Source of the DNA: a virus | Strand: one strand, 5' to 3' | DNA length: 64,000 bases | Virus record (IMG/VR): IMGVR_UViG_3300030019_000008 | Shown here: positions 3,046 through 60,432 of the stretch, in pieces | Position numbering within the stretch: position 1 is the first letter of the stretch | How the letters are laid out: each line of letters opens with the position of its first letter | Program-made: the position numbers and the translations under genes | Notes under the pieces: model-generated | What the model was told of the DNA's origin: nothing | Databases searched by the model: none | What the model saw: the letters and a program-made list of their open reading frames with translations, nothing else

Positions 3046-3588
3046 ATGACCAAGAAATCTCAAGCACGTCAACAACGGGACTACATGAAGAAGATGGCCG
3101 GCAAACAACTCGACGAACTCGACAAGATCAACGTGCAGTGCAACTCGATGCTGCAACAGCACGAATCCCTCGTCGTCACCTTCGCTCGTCCGGAAATCCT
3201 CGGGAACGTCCAGGACCCGGCACTGGTCGAGAAGAACCTCCGAATTCTCGATCGCGACATCGCAGTGGTCAAGCCCAAGCTCGATGATCTGAAGGATCGC
3301 GCCACTACTCTGGGCAAAGTGCCTGTGGACCAGATCAACATCGAAGACTTCACCTCGCTGATCTTCGACTACGAGTGCTGGATGGACGAGCACCAGTCGC
3401 TGCTGATGCCGACTGCTTCCTACCTGATCGAAGAAATCTCCAAGGCTGAGAACATCAACTACACCAAGGTGCAGCAAGCCAAGGCCGATGCTGGCATCAA
3501 TGGCGAAATCACCGCCGAACATCAAGCCAGCTTGACGGCTGAAGTCACCGGTGAAGGCACGCAGAAACCTGAAGAGGTGCAAGAATGA
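3046..3588 (+). CDS. Hypothetical helical/coiled-coil protein
   Basis: 180-aa ORF with biased codon usage; ATGA overlap with next gene. Confidence 0.75.
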   Translation: MTKKSQARQQRDYMKKMAGKQLDELDKINVQCNSMLQQHESLVVTFARPEILGNVQDPALVEKNLRILDRDIAVVKPKLDDLKDRATTLGKVPVDQINIEDFTSLIFDYECWMDEHQSLLMPTASYLIEEISKAENINYTKVQQAKADAGINGEITAEHQASLTAEVTGEGTQKPEEVQE

Positions 3589-5216
3589 GCGATCGTGAAG
3601 TAGAAGTCATCACTGATCCGGCGATGGTTGCTGTGGATGAGGAACCTGTGGCTGTTGCGGCTACTGAAGTTCCTCCCGCGGTTGATTCCGGTATTGGTAT
3701 CGAAGAAGTCGATATCGATGAAGCTCCGGTCAACTCCGCCGCCACTGAAGCTGCTCCAGTGAGCGGAGATGTCAATGGTCCTGATTCTGTCGACATCTCC
3801 ATCGATATCGTGGACATGACCTATCCGGACATCGTTCACCAGACGGCCGAACAAACTGTTCAGCCCAAGTCCGGCGTGCTTGACCCCGACAACTCCATTC
3901 TGGTGTTTCCTGGAGACAACTCGAGCGACACTATCGAGACGATCTCTGCTGCACCGAACATGATCCTCGACACGCCCTGGCAGAAGGCGTTCAAGGAATC
4001 TCGCGGTGTGGCCGTGCCTCCCGGCTACTACACGAACACCATCAAGCGCAAGGATGCTGTCTTCGCACAGACCATCGCATCTGAACGCGGTCCTCTGACG
4101 GTGGCTGAGCCTCGCTTCAAGGATAACGTCGGTGTGCCGGCTACGGGTGAGCACGCTCTTCGCAGGGTGCGTTCTCTGCTGGGTCGCGGTACGTCCTTAC
4201 AGATTCCGTGCTGGCACTCGGGCTTTTGGCTCACTCTGCGTAACCCGACTGAATCTGAACTGCTCGAGCTGCATCGCAAGATCGGTGAAGAGAAGATCAA
4301 CCTCGGTCGGCAGACCTGGGGTATGGCTCTGTCCAGTGTGAACGCCACGTTCAACAACATCATGATGGAATTCGTGATTGACCACGTCTACGACACCAGT
4401 GTCAAGGATCTGGACAACTCGGATCTGGCAGAATACCTCAGCGTACTCGACTGGCCCGTCGTGATCTGGGGTGTGGCGCTGACCGTCTATCGCAACGGCT
4501 TCCAGTATTCCCGCCCCTGCGTGAACAACCCGGCTCAGTGCCAGCACGTCTTTACTGGCATCATCAACCTCGCCAAGATGCTCTGGGTTGATGAGAAGCG
4601 GTTCTCGGAACGTCAGATCGCACACATGACCAATCGTGGCGGTAGCACGATGACCAAGGATTCGCTCAAGATATACAGCGATGAATTCGTCCTCAACCAC
4701 GGTCGCGATGTTGACCTCGGCAACGGTATCAAGGCAGCGCTAAAGATCCCGAAGATGAACGAAGGCCTGTTCTTGGGCCAGCGGTGGATCAACAACATCG
4801 TCACGCGAGTGATGAACCTCACCTCAGTTGAACTCAGTGAGAATGAGCTCAATCGTCACATCAGTGACATGAGTAAGGCATCGTACCTGCGTCAGTTCGA
4901 GCACTGGATCGAGAGCGTCGATGCGGATGGGATTCTGGTCAAGAAACAACGGCTGGAAGACGATGTGCTGACGAAGCTGCTCGAAGAGCTCAGTTCGGAT
5001 GATGAAGTCCGCACCAAGCTCGAGGCCGAGATTTCGGAATTCATGGCCGACTCGACATCAGCAATCGTCGCGCTCACGAACATGGAATGTCCGAAGTGCG
5101 GCCATCGCGAGAAAGACGCGCTCAAGCAGTTCAAGTACCTGGTTCCGATTGAGCCTCTCATGGTTTTTTTTATCCTGCTCGCGCAGAAAGTGTCTGGAGT
5201 GGCAAACCGGGTGTAG
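3585..5216 (+). CDS. Putative tail/baseplate-hub assembly chaperone-like protein (short, unshifted form)
   Basis: 543 aa, acidic N-terminus, Cys pairs (CVNNPAQC, CPKC); slippery T8 run 14 codons before the stop. Function is inference. Confidence 0.6.
   Translation: MSDREVEVITDPAMVAVDEEPVAVAATEVPPAVDSGIGIEEVDIDEAPVNSAATEAAPVSGDVNGPDSVDISIDIVDMTYPDIVHQTAEQTVQPKSGVLDPDNSILVFPGDNSSDTIETISAAPNMILDTPWQKAFKESRGVAVPPGYYTNTIKRKDAVFAQTIASERGPLTVAEPRFKDNVGVPATGEHALRRVRSLLGRGTSLQIPCWHSGFWLTLRNPTESELLELHRKIGEEKINLGRQTWGMALSSVNATFNNIMMEFVIDHVYDTSVKDLDNSDLAEYLSVLDWPVVIWGVALTVYRNGFQYSRPCVNNPAQCQHVFTGIINLAKMLWVDEKRFSERQIAHMTNRGGSTMTKDSLKIYSDEFVLNHGRDVDLGNGIKAALKIPKMNEGLFLGQRWINNIVTRVMNLTSVELSENELNRHISDMSKASYLRQFEHWIESVDADGILVKKQRLEDDVLTKLLEELSSDDEVRTKLEAEISEFMADSTSAIVALTNMECPKCGHREKDALKQFKYLVPIEPLMVFFILLAQKVSGVANRV
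5165..5171 (+). other. Putative -1 ribosomal frameshift slippery heptamer T TTT TTT
   Basis: ATG GTT TTT TTT ATC in frame 0; a -1 slip enters the 165-codon open frame. Confidence 0.65.
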
Positions 5217-5668
5217 GCAAGCCTCACATCTTCGATCCCGACTTTGGAGACCCTTCCAATCCTCGGTATGCCAACTCCATCGAAGTCATCGACTCCGAGA
5301 TAAGAAAACTCATCTCGCTGACCAAAAAACTATCTTCCTCTGAGATTAAGTTCTATCTCATTGACAAGTATGAAACAGCATATGGTATTCGTAACCATGA
5401 TACTGATGTTGATTCAAGTTTTGGTATCTTTGCATTTAACTCGTGTGAAGATTCGATGACATCCAGTCTGCTGTACGAGCGCGCTGAGGAGTTTGTAAGT
5501 TACAAGGTCGGCGAGTACTTTAAGCTCAGTTGGGTGGAGTTTATGGATCTGTCACATGAGCAATGCAATATGCTCATTGATATATCCAAGAAAAGATTGA
5601 CTGCGGATACTAATACGGTCAATGCCATAGCGAACACATTCAACAACATGGAATCGCCCAAGAAGTAA
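5171..5668 (+). CDS. C-terminal extension probably expressed by -1 frameshift from the 3585 gene
   Basis: -1 frame open from 5153 to 5668 with no ATG until 5456; contains YFKLSWVEFMDLS, reminiscent of gpGT/gp51-type C-terminal domains. Confidence 0.65.
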   Translation, partial: YPARAESVWSGKPGVGKPHIFDPDFGDPSNPRYANSIEVIDSEIRKLISLTKKLSSSEIKFYLIDKYETAYGIRNHDTDVDSSFGIFAFNSCEDSMTSSLLYERAEEFVSYKVGEYFKLSWVEFMDLSHEQCNMLIDISKKRLTADTNTVNAIANTFNNMESPKK

Positions 5669-5725
5669 TTATTCCAGAGGGGTGGGGCATTAGCCTCATT
5701 CTTCTGGAAGTTTTTTGAGGTAAGT

Positions 5726-6205
5726 ATGCTTCGTGTAAACCACAATAGCAATTTCCTGAATGAAGGATATGACATCTATGTCTGTCCTGTGAATTGCGTG
5801 GGTGTGATGGGTGCTGGTGTTGCGCTGCATTTTAGCAACAGAATGAGTGCTGTTGGTAGGAAAGCATACATCGATGCCTGTATGAGTGGCCTGATGAAAC
5901 GCAAAGCGTGTATCCTGGTGGATGGTAGCTGGAAGATAGGTAAAGGCGCCACTATCGCTATGCTAGCCACCAAGAATGACTGGAGGCGAGACAGTGATGT
6001 TGATCTGATCAAGAGAGGACTGGTCGAGTTGCGAGATCTGGCTTTGAATATGGCGGATGATCTGCGCTGGGAGTTTGCATCTATCTCCATGCCTGCGATT
6101 GGATGCGGAAGAGGTAATCTTTCGCTGGATCAAGTGATGCCTGTCATCGAAGAAGTATTTGATGAAGATCCTCGAATACTCGTAACCGTTCATCTGGTTG
6201 ACTGA
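5726..6205 (+). CDS. Macrodomain (ADP-ribose processing, Poa1p/DarG-like) protein
   Basis: PVNCVGVMGAGVA, ATKNDWR and MPAIGCGRGNL macrodomain motifs. Confidence 0.85.
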   Translation: MLRVNHNSNFLNEGYDIYVCPVNCVGVMGAGVALHFSNRMSAVGRKAYIDACMSGLMKRKACILVDGSWKIGKGATIAMLATKNDWRRDSDVDLIKRGLVELRDLALNMADDLRWEFASISMPAIGCGRGNLSLDQVMPVIEEVFDEDPRILVTVHLVD

Positions 6206-6228
6206 AAAAAAAAGAACATAGTAGAAGG

Positions 6229-6265
6229 TATTCACTCTAGATGCCTTGGGCATCTAGAGTGAATA
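6229..6265. terminator. Bidirectional terminator-like hairpin between convergent genes
   Basis: TATTCACTCTAGATGC / GCATCTAGAGTGAATA perfect inverted repeat. Confidence 0.75.
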
Positions 6266-6275
6266 TTTGTACGTC

Positions 6276-6719
6276 TTATTTCTTCTGCTGGTCCTCTTGA
6301 TGCTTACGCACGGCACTCTTGCAGTTCTTGTAAACCTGCAGGATACGACCACCCAGCGGCATGTCACCGAAGATGTACTCCAGGTCCGTATCGAACAGAG
6401 CAGTCGGGTCGATGATGAAACCAGACTCACGCAGGGCTGCTGTGGTGCTGTAGGCCACTGCGAACTTGCCAGTCTTGATGGCTTCTGCTGCCATGTAGCG
6501 TTCGAACACCACCAACATGCCCAATGGCGTGTAGTGGAAGAGCAGTCGCTTGCCAGCGGCCGTCACGGACTTACGAGTCTCCCCGAAAGTCATCCCGAAG
6601 GATTCACCACTTGCCACAGCTCTGTCGTAGAATCCATCCCCGCTAGACCACGCGGGATTGAAGGGAATTTCCTTCACCGTTTCAGTGAAGATCTTATCGA
6701 ACTTGCTCTTTGTCGTCAT
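6276..6719 (-). CDS. Hypothetical phage protein
   Basis: 147-aa ORF in the minus-strand accessory cluster. Confidence 0.7.
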   Translation of the reverse strand: MTTKSKFDKIFTETVKEIPFNPAWSSGDGFYDRAVASGESFGMTFGETRKSVTAAGKRLLFHYTPLGMLVVFERYMAAEAIKTGKFAVAYSTTAALRESGFIIDPTALFDTDLEYIFGDMPLGGRILQVYKNCKSAVRKHQEDQQKK

Positions 6720-6743
6720 TTTTGTGTTCCGTTATTGTTGTCT

Positions 6744-7091
6744 TCAGAATTCACAGTTCCGCCAGGGGACGATGAGGTAATCCACAGCCTTGACCCAGCC
6801 GAGGGTCTTGATGGGATCGTCCTTCTCTCCTGGCGCAGTGCCGATCAAGTAGTACTTGATACCCTTCTCGATCTTGGTCTCGAGAACGACGTATGCTCCC
6901 ACATCGAGCGTCCCGATCTTGGTCCTGCCGGGATTGGCATAGACGTCGGGGTTGGTAGTGGGAGCGGGCACCAGGTTGCGACCAGATGCATTGAATTTCA
7001 TATAGATGCAAGTGTCAGGTGGAACAGCCTGACAAATGCCGGCAAACAGAAACAAGAGAAATGCGATGAAGTATTTCACGATACACTCCAA
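6744..7091 (-). CDS. Secreted SH3-like domain protein
   Basis: Signal-peptide-like N-terminus (KYFIAFLLFLFAGICQA), then VYANP...KIGTL...YYLI...LGWV pattern typical of SH3b; start may be the GTG a few codons in. Confidence 0.55.
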   Translation of the reverse strand: MECIVKYFIAFLLFLFAGICQAVPPDTCIYMKFNASGRNLVPAPTTNPDVYANPGRTKIGTLDVGAYVVLETKIEKGIKYYLIGTAPGEKDDPIKTLGWVKAVDYLIVPWRNCEF

Positions 7092-43160: not shown

Positions 43161-45032
43161 TCAGATATTGCCGCGGAAACGACCGAAGCCGGCCGGATTG
43201 CCGCCCGAGGTACGACGCTGGAAGTAGGAGTCGTTGCCACGGGTGCTCATGCGAGCATCGTCGAGGTAGTCGGCACCACGAGTGCGATCACGGCGGGCAC
43301 CGAACAGGCCGCTGGATTCCAGCGAGACGTCGAGCTTGGCCGCGAGCAGCGCTTCGGTCAGTGCGTTCAGGAAGTCGCGGTTGAACGAGTAGCGACGGGA
43401 CATGCCGGTGAAGCGCACTTCGGAGGCCAGCGCGCCTTCGATGATGGTGCGTTGTTCATCAGCACGAGCGATCACATCCGTACCACCGCCCTGGGTTGCA
43501 TCACCCCAGCGACCGATCTGGCCAGCATCGTTGGCACCGAAGGTGTTGCAGATGAAGGCATAGTCGACGTCACGGATATCGCGACGCACACCACCAGGAG
43601 CAACATAGTCGCCATTGAGCAGCGACAGGTTGTTCTTGGAGAGGATCGTGTGGTTCTTCTTGGCCTCGAACTTCGCCGCGAAGTTGCCCTTGGTGAGCTT
43701 TTCTGCAGCACGGAAGATCGCTGCTTGAGCCGAAGATTCACCTTCAGCTGCCATCGCGAACGGAGCCAGGAAGTAGGTATCCGGACCGCATTCGGCGATG
43801 TCGATCGAGACCACCAGGTCGTCGAACATGATGGCTTGCAGGTAATCCGCGAGATCGTCGTCGCGCAGATCCTTGCCCGTATCCATCACATAGCCGCCCT
43901 TCGGATCGTTGGTGACGTTCGCTTCGACGTTGAAACCACCGACACCATGCATGTCGCGACCGCCAGCCGGATTGGTGTTCGGACGGAAGCACTGAGTCCA
44001 GCCGTTGTCCACACGCAGAGCGTTGATGGCCGCCAGCGAGAGCAGAGTGCCTTCGAGGGAGGTCATCCGGGTATGGCCGAGCTGCGTGATGATGAAGTTC
44101 GGGATGTAGGTGCGGGTATCCCGGCGTTCAGTGGTACGGAAGGAGTTGTTCGGCTTTTCTTCCGGCGCATAGATCACGTCCATGTAGCCGCCAACATGAG
44201 CCAGAATCTTGCTCTGAGCACCGATGTCGTTCAGCGAGACATCCATCGAGTTGCTCTGACGATTCGGGATCGTGGACAGCACCAGACGGGTATCGGTACG
44301 GACCGGCACCCCGACAGCGTTCTCGGTGTTCGGCTGGTTGAACAGCGCGCGCACTTGCAGAGCGCGTCCGGCAGTCAGGTCGTCGATGGACACACGGACG
44401 AGACCGGCAGCTTGAGCGAGGATGGTGGCGCAGGCAGTCACGGCATTGGTGAACAGCGCATCGGTGCGCGGCTTCGAGAGCTCGAATCCGGCCGGAACGA
44501 CTTCGGCGTCAGCCTGCACAAACGACGTGTGCGGGTAACGAACCGACAGTTCCTTCTGGATGAAGGCAATCATCTTGCCGTCGAAAGCTTCGCCGGCGTG
44601 ACGCTTCCAGATGATCGTTTCCGGGCCCTTGTTGATCTGGGTCTCGACAGCGCCGAACGAGTCGCCGATCAGCAGAGTGTGGAACGAACCGGCCGCACCC
44701 TTGGAGGTCTTGAGGAACGCCAGGATGACGAGGATCGAAACCGTGATGCCCTCGCTGTTCGCGCGGTCGAACGTCAGGAACGAGTAGTCGTAGTAGACGT
44801 TGTTGACCGTGCCTTCGAAGTACTTGGTGGCGGCCTCGGAGAGACGGACCAGCGTGTCGCCGCTGGCGGTGTCGCCGGCCGGGTTCAGCAGTGCTGCGTA
44901 GTTGATATTGTCCAGGCCTTCAGCCTGACCGCCGAAGTTCGGACGGGCGGATTCAGCGCGGGGGCGGGGAGCCTCGGCATGCTCTTGGCGGCCGTTGTTC
45001 CCGTTCTGGTTGGTATCGTCAACGATGCTCAT
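43161..45032 (-). CDS. chmA: Chimallin, major phage nuclear shell protein (gp54-like)
   Basis: 623 aa, strongly biased codons, directly upstream of nvRNAP beta'-N; GGYMDV, YIPNFIIT and W..CFRP segments. Confidence 0.8.
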   Translation of the reverse strand: MSIVDDTNQNGNNGRQEHAEAPRPRAESARPNFGGQAEGLDNINYAALLNPAGDTASGDTLVRLSEAATKYFEGTVNNVYYDYSFLTFDRANSEGITVSILVILAFLKTSKGAAGSFHTLLIGDSFGAVETQINKGPETIIWKRHAGEAFDGKMIAFIQKELSVRYPHTSFVQADAEVVPAGFELSKPRTDALFTNAVTACATILAQAAGLVRVSIDDLTAGRALQVRALFNQPNTENAVGVPVRTDTRLVLSTIPNRQSNSMDVSLNDIGAQSKILAHVGGYMDVIYAPEEKPNNSFRTTERRDTRTYIPNFIITQLGHTRMTSLEGTLLSLAAINALRVDNGWTQCFRPNTNPAGGRDMHGVGGFNVEANVTNDPKGGYVMDTGKDLRDDDLADYLQAIMFDDLVVSIDIAECGPDTYFLAPFAMAAEGESSAQAAIFRAAEKLTKGNFAAKFEAKKNHTILSKNNLSLLNGDYVAPGGVRRDIRDVDYAFICNTFGANDAGQIGRWGDATQGGGTDVIARADEQRTIIEGALASEVRFTGMSRRYSFNRDFLNALTEALLAAKLDVSLESSGLFGARRDRTRGADYLDDARMSTRGNDSYFQRRTSGGNPAGFGRFRGNI

Positions 45033-58194: not shown

Positions 58195-60432
58195 TTAGGC
58201 CGTCGTCGAAGAAGCGGCATCGAGTGTGTCCTTGCGGTACACATCCAGATACAGCTCTTCCACAGTCTTCATGTTCGGCGCACCCAGCTTGACCTGCAGG
58301 GTCCAAACATATCCCTTCGACTTCTGATCGGTGCTGATGTACGCATTCGGAATGATCGTGTAGACGTTCGTGAAGCGGTCCTTGATCAGTTCCTTGTAGC
58401 GGGCATTGACAGCATCGATGAACTGGTCATCGGTCAGGGTAGTGGAGCCAGAGAACTCACGCCAGATGCGTTCGCCGATCTTGTTCAGCTCGCAGCACAG
58501 CATGACTGTGAGGAAGCTGTTGAGCACCGACGTATCCGAGAGGCTGTCGCCACCGTAGATGGTCTTCAGAGCCGGGATGAAGAACTGCCGGCGATCGAAA
58601 GCACCCACCCAGTTCATGCCGATTTCCCAGTCGCGGTTGCGGGTAGCAGCACCGATGAACTCAACGTTCAAGTTCTTGAACATCGTGATCATGGAGTTCG
58701 GATAGCGATCGAAGAAACTCGCTTCCTTCCAGATGCCATCAGCAGCACCCATGCATTCCGCAGCCTTGGAGGCGATCTCGACGGCAACAGGCAGACGACC
58801 ACGCCAGTTGCTGCTCAGCAGGTTGCCAGAGCGGCCCATGATCAGGCCACGAACGGCCTTCGTACCCCAGTAGACCGATTCCGGATAGTTCTTCAGATAG
58901 GCATTGAGAGCCACAGATCGCGAGTACTCATTCGCTTCTGAGAGCTTCTCACCAACAGCATGAGTCGCCAGGAAGATGAACGTGTTCTTGCGAACCGAGA
59001 TGAACTGAGCCAGAGCCTTCTTCGTATCGAGCTGGAAGCCCGTGTCGTAGATGATGCATTCCGGGTGCAGAGCCGAGTCCGTGAACTCGGAGAGCTCATC
59101 AGCATAGACCGCGATATGGCTCGTGACCAGCTTGTTGAGCATTGCATCGTCCATCGTGCCATCCGAGCCGCCTTGGGCATAGATGGTGGCCGACTCACTG
59201 AACCGGAACGCGTCAACATCCGAGTAATTCAGTTCGAATGCGTGGTACGGCTGGTTGGCAGAAGTGACGGCCGACAGGATGTTGAAACGCCATTCTTCAT
59301 CAGCGGTTTCATCGAAGTCGGTGTAATCATCGCCAACATGCTTGACTTCTTCTGCATAAAGCAGATTGATCACTTCAGCGAGGTTGTCCTCATAGACGTG
59401 GATCTGGCCGAACGGACCGTAGACCGGAGTCGTGGTGATGTCATCGAGCGACTGGTAGGCCGGGAGCAGGATGTCGCCAATGTAGCGTTCAGCTTCATAG
59501 GTGGAGTCCATAGCACCGGGCTTCAGAGCCACATCGACATACTGATCGCCAGCAATGGTCGAAGTGATCGTCGAGGTCTGGTTGATATCGTCCTTGTACA
59601 GGAGTTGTGCCACCAGCGGATAGATCTTGTCCTTGGTCAGCAGGTTCTTGTTGATCGGCATCTGGGAATCATCGGTCGGCGCATACATACGCAGACCAAC
59701 ATTGTTACCATCTTGACCGAAGAACGGAACTGCGATGTCGAACATCGGGTACATGATGGATTGAGCACCAGCAGCGCCATTGGCAGCTGTGTCAATCATC
59801 GTGCCTTCTTGCTGCACACCCAGACCGATTTCCAGATTGCGTGACGTCACCACTATCATGGTGTTGCCATCGAAAGCGCGCTTGACATAGGCATCACCGT
59901 CTTCCGACGTCGCCCAGTCATAGGTCGAAGAGTAAACCACCTCTTCAACGCCACCTTCGACCGGGATGGCCTTGGCAATCCACTTGCCGCGATAGCCGGG
60001 GATGGTGCCGCCGGTCTTGATCCGATTGCCATCGGTGTCGAGCATGTACTTGCCGTCGGAACCGCGCCGGTATTCGGTGAGGTTGGTCTTGAGCAGATCC
60101 AGGTAGATGCGGATGCTCGGACGAGGACCGGCATCCTGCGGCTTCAGGCGACGAATGATCTGGGGGTTGGCCTGATCATTGAGCTTGTTCGAGAGAACGG
60201 TTTGGTGTGTGGCGTACTTCTTCCGGAGATCGAAAGAATCACTGCCATACATCGTGGTGCGAGAATTGCCGCTGACCAGCTGATCCGTAGTGGGGCCTCG
60301 CTTCGCAAAAAGAAAGACTTTTGCAAGGTGGGAAGGGATAGCTTCCGCGGCGACACTCGCCGCGGTGGTGCTGTCATCCTTCATGCCCAACTGGATCGTC
60401 ATCGGCGCCGCATTTTTCATCAATGCTGACAT
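58195..60432 (-). CDS. Contractile tail sheath protein (gp29-like)
   Basis: 745 aa; YDTGF..DTK, PES.YWGT and PALKTIY segments. Confidence 0.85.
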   Translation of the reverse strand: MSALMKNAAPMTIQLGMKDDSTTAASVAAEAIPSHLAKVFLFAKRGPTTDQLVSGNSRTTMYGSDSFDLRKKYATHQTVLSNKLNDQANPQIIRRLKPQDAGPRPSIRIYLDLLKTNLTEYRRGSDGKYMLDTDGNRIKTGGTIPGYRGKWIAKAIPVEGGVEEVVYSSTYDWATSEDGDAYVKRAFDGNTMIVVTSRNLEIGLGVQQEGTMIDTAANGAAGAQSIMYPMFDIAVPFFGQDGNNVGLRMYAPTDDSQMPINKNLLTKDKIYPLVAQLLYKDDINQTSTITSTIAGDQYVDVALKPGAMDSTYEAERYIGDILLPAYQSLDDITTTPVYGPFGQIHVYEDNLAEVINLLYAEEVKHVGDDYTDFDETADEEWRFNILSAVTSANQPYHAFELNYSDVDAFRFSESATIYAQGGSDGTMDDAMLNKLVTSHIAVYADELSEFTDSALHPECIIYDTGFQLDTKKALAQFISVRKNTFIFLATHAVGEKLSEANEYSRSVALNAYLKNYPESVYWGTKAVRGLIMGRSGNLLSSNWRGRLPVAVEIASKAAECMGAADGIWKEASFFDRYPNSMITMFKNLNVEFIGAATRNRDWEIGMNWVGAFDRRQFFIPALKTIYGGDSLSDTSVLNSFLTVMLCCELNKIGERIWREFSGSTTLTDDQFIDAVNARYKELIKDRFTNVYTIIPNAYISTDQKSKGYVWTLQVKLGAPNMKTVEELYLDVYRKDTLDAASSTTA

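Follow-up and report, generated by a model that had tools for sequence, protein, structure and literature searches.

The stretch of viral DNA analyzed here, IMG/VR virus record IMGVR_UViG_3300030019_000008, comprises 64,000 nucleotides (in the following called the window) and carries on its forward strand two overlapping open reading frames (ORFs) that meet at a run of T's, a candidate site for programmed -1 frameshifting. The upstream frame, frame 0, is a gene at 3585..5216 (+) encoding a protein of 543 amino acids (aa; P0001) of the phiKZ gp077 family, and it ends at a TAG stop codon at 5214..5216 (+). Shortly before this stop the frame-0 codons ATG GTT TTT TTT ATC contain eight consecutive T's (T8) at 5164-5171, the only T run of at least eight in the window, and within this run T_TTT_TTT at 5165..5171 (+) forms a slippery heptamer in the X_XXY_YYZ register, with 14 sense codons left before the frame-0 stop. 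Runs of at least eight A's are present at 6205, 18696, and 50582, and the window has several A7 and T7 runs as well. The -1 frame has a TGA at 5150..5152 (+) and is then open from 5153 to 5668, and the +1 frame is closed at 5343. As the TGA shuts the -1 frame 13 nucleotides ahead of the heptamer, entry into this frame must occur 3′ of it. The earliest ATG, GTG, or TTG of the -1 frame is the ATG at 5456, which corresponds to residue 95 of the product. A slip of one base at the heptamer would lead into a -1 extension at 5171..5668 (+), with 165 codons and a stop at 5666-5668, so that the predicted slip product comprises 529 + 165 = 694 aa with the junction ...LMVFF|YPARAESVWSGK and the predicted tryptic junction peptide YLVPIEPLMVFFYPAR. 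These values bear out an earlier note, made from the letters of this stretch alone, which had read a T_TTT_TTT 14 codons ahead of the stop of the 543-aa gene, a -1 frame that stays open from the TGA to 5668 without an ATG for about 100 codons, and a fusion of approximately 694 aa.

The same arrangement is found throughout the relatives of the window. A single-protein search of IMG/VR returned no close relatives, whereas alignment-based scans did retrieve loci. The first collection consists of 58 loci, namely the window, 16 GenBank phage records, and 41 IMG/VR contigs, the last of which were gathered via an alignment of the downstream (-1) product. In all 58 loci a frame-0 ORF of 500-600 aa overlaps a -1 ORF, with a T run of at least six in the overlap. 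The same layout was observed in sets gathered via the upstream protein only and not selected for the downstream ORF, i.e., in 13/13 GenBank loci and in 54/54 usable IMG/VR loci. A tblastn search of GenBank phages with the -1 product matched RP12/RP31, FLC9, FLC1-1B, and FLC4-3B; the matches begin at query residue 5-6, which is the T run, and these loci show ACx TTT TTT ACC CTx CTC together with an open -1 frame. Cultured phages with this layout include KTN4 (species Phikzvirus phiKZ), PhiPA3, Goslar (gp081/gp082), SPFM17 (Seoulvirus, SPN3US-like), Ea35-70, VP4B, Miami, GXNNA8 (EL-like), RSF1, LucasX, DT01, and the Bacillus phage AgentSmith, and the GC content across the loci ranges from 36 to 58%. 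The predicted junction in KTN4 is ...MLSTFF|YFGGLEVK.

T runs are error-prone in sequencing, and the split could in principle stem from a mistake in sequencing or assembling the homopolymer, or the locus could be a pseudogene of recent origin, the true gene being one ORF of 694 aa with nine T's (T9). A T count that fuses the two ORFs in frame, named in the earlier note as an outcome to look for, was found in 0/58 loci of the first collection and in 0/54 of the second set, which stem from many independent isolates and metagenomes. The 543-aa protein occurs with identical sequence on six contigs, and the differences in run length between loci arise from substitutions in the flanking codons rather than from insertions or deletions. 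Of the 198 relatives of the -1 product, which all measure 70-180 aa, the best 150 include no in-frame fused homologue, and no fused homologue of the upstream protein was found in a search range of 298-951 aa, in which the relatives all measure 403-548 aa. An artifact or a decaying gene is thus extremely improbable as an explanation of the locus.

Nucleotide-level statistics are based on the 47 loci left after removal of redundancy at 80% identity. All 47 have T at each of heptamer positions 1-5, and in every locus the first Phe codon is TTT, whereas the remaining Phe codons of these genes comprise 556 TTC and 243 TTT (70% versus 30%); in the window genes TTC accounts for 565 of 820 Phe codons and TTT for 255. 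At position 0, a synonymous site that forms the third base of codons such as those for Thr, Val, and Leu, 42/47 loci have T. Entropy amounts to 0.49 at position 0 and to 0 at the third base of the first Phe codon, compared with approximately 1.5-1.9 at other third positions. The last base of the heptamer varies and can be T, C, A, or G, a pattern expected of X_XXY_YYZ. This yields T_TTT_TTN in 42 loci and G_TTT_TTT in five. The run extends from T5 to T9 and is mostly T7-T8, with T6 in 8/47 loci and T5 in 2/54 loci of the second set. The two T5 loci (IMG/VR 3300044719_000253, here L086, and 3300038443_002533, here L089) read GTT TTT ATC/ACC and still contain a U_UUU tetramer; a passage in Sharma et al. 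(2014; PMC4066793) describes two classes of shift motif for Escherichia coli, and Z_ZZN tetramers form one of them. L086 and L089 belong with L073 and L097 to a clade in which the second Phe is replaced (VF[ITS]xLLYQK) and the run is T5 or a T6 in another register (GTT TTT TCC). This clade keeps an intact start-less -1 ORF (YQPPLPKD...HV.HP.FG) and lends itself as a natural experiment on the shortest motif that still permits slipping.

Constraint extends beyond the heptamer into the overlap. Frame 0 retains the pattern x-Leu-Leu-x-Gln-Lys. Its synonymous sites +9 and +15 are constrained (C in 38/47 and 37/47 loci), and its second codon position at +17 is free (entropy 1.98). As +9 and +15 are constrained while +17 is free, it is Tyr-Pro-x-Arg in the -1 frame that is kept, and the -1 frame is, judged by this alignment, under selection inside the overlap. 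In 13/47 loci, including the window, the -1 frame has a stop codon 15 nucleotides ahead of the heptamer, which leaves only a narrow stretch for entry into this frame. The alignment of the orthologous locus, proposed in the earlier note as a check, hence revealed that the slippery site is conserved and that conservation of the coding sequence begins ahead of any start codon.

An alternative to recoding is that the locus encodes two separate proteins, in which the downstream ORF is translated by coupling or re-initiation or from a non-canonical start, and the T run is kept for Phe-Phe alone. T4 indeed encodes the paralogs gp26 and gp51 by separate genes. Moreover, in RP31 and in P0002 (MRKPHIFDPDFG...), which is the closest relative of the -1 product, an ATG overlaps the upstream stop (MRKPHIF...), and an ATGA-type overlap of this kind likewise puts the downstream gene into the -1 frame. 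The RP31 overlap reads CTGATGA (locus 2545-2551), and RP31 has kept the T7 heptamer. Because their ATG overlaps the upstream stop, phages of the RP31/P0002 type may make the helical domain encoded by the -1 frame as a free-standing protein as well as in fused form, and their arrangement could represent a step on the way to the split genes of T4. The window, however, has GTA at the position of this ATG, and the sole near-cognate codon nearby is an ATC inside the conserved HIFDPDFG. Across the non-redundant set, no ATG, GTG, or TTG lies between the site and the first conserved -1 motif (H[VI]xxPxFG) in 44/47 loci, and a Shine-Dalgarno core of at least four nucleotides for the -1 ORF was found in 0/47. 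The first start codon comes only at residue 85 in KTN4, at residue 87 in AgentSmith, and at residues 135 and 151 in two metagenomic phages. The -1 frame is open back to the T run in every locus in spite of changes in linker length, Y-P-x-R is conserved inside the overlap, and TTT is used in all 47 loci against a background of 30%, all of which speaks against two separately initiated proteins. Homologues combining a start of their own with the loss of the slippery site, the other outcome that the earlier note had asked to look for, are not what the alignment contains, and the two-protein explanation appears improbable.

The missing start codon has left its traces in the databases. Because the -1 ORF lacks one, gene callers report products of 70-180 aa with arbitrary N-termini, some of which begin with MFFYP at the T run itself. 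In the window the called ORF is 5456..5668 (+), on our reading the C-terminal part of the -1 extension rather than an independent gene; the database call P0003, 70 aa in length, is 100% identical to residues 102-171 of the -1 frame. P0002 is 65% identical over residues 23-171, i.e., starting 79 residues upstream of the ATG at 5456, in agreement with the earlier suggestion that the downstream piece is mis-called as a 70-aa orphan. In GenBank it is annotated as a stand-alone hypothetical protein of approximately 75 to 146 aa, and the recoding event is annotated in none of the records examined. Annotated starts were compared in GenBank records including RP31, FLC9, FLC1-1B, KTN4, Goslar, AgentSmith, and pEa_SNUABM_54. 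They vary by up to approximately 70 codons between close relatives and all cut into conserved sequence; examples are KTN4_102 (80 aa), AGENTSMITH_12 (77 aa), and RP31 ORF251 (146 aa).

Taken as a whole, this sequence pattern makes it very likely that the two frames are connected by a programmed recoding event, whether ribosomal or transcriptional. We consider it probable, with somewhat less confidence, that this event is a programmed -1 ribosomal frameshift on U_UUU_UUU which produces two forms of one morphogenesis protein. A stimulatory element is common but not obligatory at programmed -1 sites. The earlier note had pointed to a small hairpin, CUGC-UCGC-GCAG, behind the slip site. This hairpin exists at 5176..5187 (+) with a stem of 4 bp, and it was rejected as a conserved stimulator: all four pairs are possible in 8/47 relatives, covariation is absent, and the local fold of the window is no better than that of shuffled sequences (z +0.24). 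It is probably a by-product of the conserved LLAQ/PARA coding. Several points weigh against a ribosomal frameshift. Besides the fold of the window and the overlapping ATG of RP31 and P0002, the 60 nucleotides following the heptamer fold no better than shuffles across the 47 loci (mean z -0.56), an upstream Shine-Dalgarno-like stimulator is not evident in the locus alignment, and G_TTT_TTT in five of the 47 loci is an imperfect match in the P-site. In addition, Atkins et al. (2016; PMC5009743) report that in E. coli U_UUU_UUU shifts much less readily than A_AAA_AAG. Finally, the register of the run alone cannot separate ribosomal from transcriptional slippage, because Phe-Phe fixes it.

In transcriptional slippage an RNA polymerase (RNAP), either the non-virion RNAP (nvRNAP) of the phage or that of the host, would add an extra U, and translation of the edited transcripts would give an identical 694-aa protein, so that the protein product does not distinguish the two mechanisms. 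The site is always a T homopolymer (T5-T9, mostly T7-T8), and a stimulatory RNA structure was not found in the 47 loci, both of which suit a slipping polymerase. According to a passage in the same study of E. coli shift motifs (PMC4066793), the genes of this bacterium avoid UUUUUUU in every frame, and transcriptional slippage is a possible cause. On the other side, the conserved core consists of only five to six T's and the run is not under selection for length, as the T6 and T5 loci demonstrate, and the last base of the heptamer is free, as in X_XXY_YYZ sites. Efficient slippage of bacterial RNAP needs approximately 8-9 A's or T's, and T5 is short for that, with the reservation that a phage nvRNAP may differ. 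Only the short runs (T5-T6, a fifth of the loci) and the free last base favor the ribosome; on this ground we infer that the slip is ribosomal rather than transcriptional, and we rate slippage of the polymerase as unlikely, though less so than two separately initiated proteins.

If the slip is ribosomal, expression of the locus could proceed as follows. Most ribosomes would terminate at the TAG at 5214 and release the 543-aa protein, the last 14 residues of which would complete its C-terminal helix. On U_UUU_UUU (5165-5171) a minority would move one base backwards as tRNA-Phe pairs anew with UUU, and these ribosomes would go on to read YPARAE..., a flexible linker, and a helical domain of 130 residues before they stop at 5668 and release the 694-aa form. 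The ratio of the short to the long form would be set by the slip frequency. As U_UUU_UUU is reported to be weakly shift-prone, a low slip rate is likely, as in lambda G/GT, and the long form may be rare. Phage factors that bind the ribosome, or the phage RNA polymerase, might possibly adjust how often the slip occurs in the course of infection. The part common to both forms may act as a baseplate-hub assembly chaperone, as suggested by a distant relationship to T4 gp26, and the added domain might bring in another partner, in the manner of the T part of lambda gpGT.

The 543-aa protein matches phrog_4585 (E 4e-101), and its family comprises phiKZ gp077, PhiPA3 gp074, 201phi2-1 gp136, and EL gp047 (names from the note in the PhiPA3 record). 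Its C-terminus, CPKCG...MVFFILLAQK, is the gp26-like region. The relationship is weak, which counts against the proposed role in hub assembly: the Pfam family PF12322 is matched with 13.8 bits against a cut-off of 24.5 (E 0.049), and hhalign aligns the protein to T4 gp26 with a probability of 60% (E 8.5e-5, 99 columns, gp26 residues 110-208). PF12322 is matched at E ≤0.1 by 4/26 members of the family. With phrog_150, annotated as "baseplate hub," the window protein gives E 0.0016, and 6/26 members match, the best with E 2.8e-6. The hhalign alignment pairs ECPxC...FFxLL with KCPECG...FFELL of T4, i.e., a CxxC knuckle and a terminal FFxLL, the latter being the slip site in the chimallivirus genes. 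These similarities weakly suggest that the C-terminal third of the 543-aa protein is a distant relative of T4 gp26. The AlphaFold2 (AF2) model of the protein has a predicted template modeling score (pTM) of 0.76; residues 1-81 are disordered, and a C-terminal helix at residues 524-542 holds the slip site, so that the long form would lose the last 14 residues of this helix. A Foldseek search of the PDB with this model gave no significant match, the HK97 chaperone 2ob9 being at rank 49 with E 4.2. VIA-align (wide) gave helical-hairpin matches only (Z ≤6.1), and a Pfam search of the protein found no tail-chaperone match. The comparison with T4 gp26 and gp51 recommended by the earlier note thus upheld a weak similarity of the 543-aa protein to gp26, while this protein gave no tail-chaperone match in Pfam and the added domain gave no match to gp51.

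The extension starts with YPARAE..., continues with a disordered linker and the HIFDPDFG motif, and ends in an all-helical domain with YETAYGIRNH. The -1 product matches phrog_12109 (E 4e-21), and Tyr, His, and Glu residues are invariant in the alignment of its relatives. Its AF2 model is all alpha with a predicted local distance difference test (pLDDT) value of 80, and residues 1-19 of the frame are disordered. Foldseek against the PDB returned nothing for the -1 product, and a search of BFVD found only uncharacterized jumbo-phage orthologs. No similarity of the domain to T4 gp51 or gp28 was detected, and matches in the ESM Atlas scored below 0.9, including a P2 GpE cluster at 0.83, which is in the range of chance and was not used. 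According to the model, the added domain is all-helical, and the searches made gave it no known relatives.

The genomic setting identifies the window as part of a chimallivirus. It encodes chimallin at 43161-45032 (PF25677, 83.6 bits), a phiKZ-type sheath gene at 58195-60432, and a divergent family B DNA polymerase. A DNA-level search of GenBank phages gave a single match of 125 nucleotides and hence no close sequenced relative there. The frameshift locus lies approximately 53 kb from the sheath gene and adjoins a gene for an RNAP beta subunit (a virion RNAP subunit) and a macro-domain gene; its other neighbors are genes without an assigned function. Chimallin and the sheath gene agree with the assignment to a nucleus-forming jumbo phage in the earlier note, and the distance to the sheath gene with its statement that the locus is far from the tail operon. 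The upstream gene at 3046..3588 (+) encodes 180 aa (phrog_28433) and corresponds by position to phiKZ gp078 / PhiPA3 gp075, which in these phages stand directly upstream of the gp077-family gene in gene order. Its overlap of four nucleotides with the start of the 543-aa gene suggests that both genes belong to one operon. Immediately 3′ of the stop of the -1 ORF, a terminator-like hairpin of 17 pairs at 5672..5716 (+) is followed by GTTTTTT and is likely where the transcription unit ends; a terminator is annotated at the corresponding place of the LucasX locus. Directly 3′ of the frameshift unit, at 5726-6205, the window encodes the macro-domain protein (PF01661, E 7e-6; phrog_335 "phosphatase"). 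The gene order in Goslar is identical: gp081, gp082, and then the macro-domain gene gp083.

A description of this frameshift was not found in the searchable literature, including the 2016 recoding review and the 2026 Goslar preprint, subscription-only papers being outside this scope. What the locus would add is an example of a known mechanism from a gene family and a lineage not previously connected with it. The Chimalliviridae (phiKZ, PhiPA3, 201phi2-1, Goslar, SPN3US) are studied intensively as models and for therapy, and recognizing the frameshift would correct an annotation error that runs through the whole family and would add a protein of 650-750 aa to each proteome. It would also provide a concrete handle on the assembly of the baseplate hub, which is poorly understood even in T4, and extend the rule that tail genes use a conserved -1 frameshift to another lineage and gene family.

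The system closest in logic is the conserved -1 frameshift of the tail chaperones, lambda gpG/gpGT (Levin et al., 1993; Xu, Hendrix and Duda, 2004; both as cited in PMC5009743). As in lambda G/GT, the -1 slip would take place on a heptamer a few codons short of the end of a morphogenesis gene, the -1 ORF lacks a start, and a short and a C-terminally extended form would share the N-terminal part; the signal is conserved despite sequence divergence, and an in-frame fused version is absent. Unlike in lambda, the shift site is U_UUU_UUN instead of the lambda-type G_GGA_AAG, the common part of approximately 530 aa is 4-5 times longer, and the locus is not placed between the tube and tape-measure genes. 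No relationship in sequence or fold was detected by Pfam, Foldseek, and VIA, which are weak searches that leave room for a distant kinship. Our reading is that the pair follows the logic of G/GT without belonging to its family, because size and genomic position differ and no match in fold was found in these searches. Of the gpG/gpGT-like pair proposed in the earlier note the frameshift logic consequently stands, while the family assignment does not, given a protein of 500-600 aa which matches no tail-chaperone Pfam family, is not flanked by tube and tape-measure genes, and is weakly gp26-related. Likewise, of the tail or baseplate chaperone pair of phiKZ-like phages the conserved two-form arrangement is retained, and the added domain has no detectable similarity to gp51. 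Goslar gp81 and gp82 are not mentioned in the main text of the 2026 preprint on the virion structure and proteome of this phage, which is a hint only.

The second comparison is with T4, in which gp26 and gp51 have been designated hub assembly chaperones (Leiman et al., 2010; PMC3004832). In the T4 record (NC_000866) gp26 has 208 aa, accompanied by an internal product gp26', and gp51 has 249 aa. Both match phrog_150 almost from end to end (E 6.7e-71 and 2.6e-84), and they find each other in BLASTP with E 2e-6, which confirms their paralogy at the level of sequence; at its C-terminus gp51 has an additional part (phrog_634). T4 resembles the chimalliviruses in having a short protein and a longer paralog, and T4 gene 26 also gives two nested products (26'). 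It differs in having two separate, divergent genes, 26 and 51, both of which begin at a start of their own. The chimallivirus protein has approximately 350 more N-terminal residues than gp26, and its -1 domain bears no similarity to gp51. After examination of the T4 gp26/gp51 region (NC_000866, locus 3803-5229), T4 was rejected as a case of the same arrangement, as the genes are divergent and a T run is missing. In the neighboring region (locus 5229-6882), T4 genes 27 and 28 overlap by 56 nucleotides in the annotation (end of 27 at 6404, start of 28 at 6349). T4 gp26 ends exactly at FFELL, the segment homologous to the slip site; its FF is encoded by TTC TTT, and gene 25 follows with its own ATG. 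Since T4, with a next gene that has its own ATG, uses TTC TTT, the T run goes with the start-less -1 ORF. A wider idea, which we put forward tentatively and regard as rather doubtful at present, is that gp26-type hub chaperones are the counterpart of lambda G/GT in giant contractile-tailed phages, and that a two-form chaperone whose ratio is set by recoding is near-universal in long-tail assembly. If this were true, T4 would fulfill the rule by its paralogous genes 26 and 51 and the chimalliviruses by a frameshift, and the helical domain, specific to chimalliviruses, would be an adaptor that couples hub or tape-measure assembly to the initiation of the tube.

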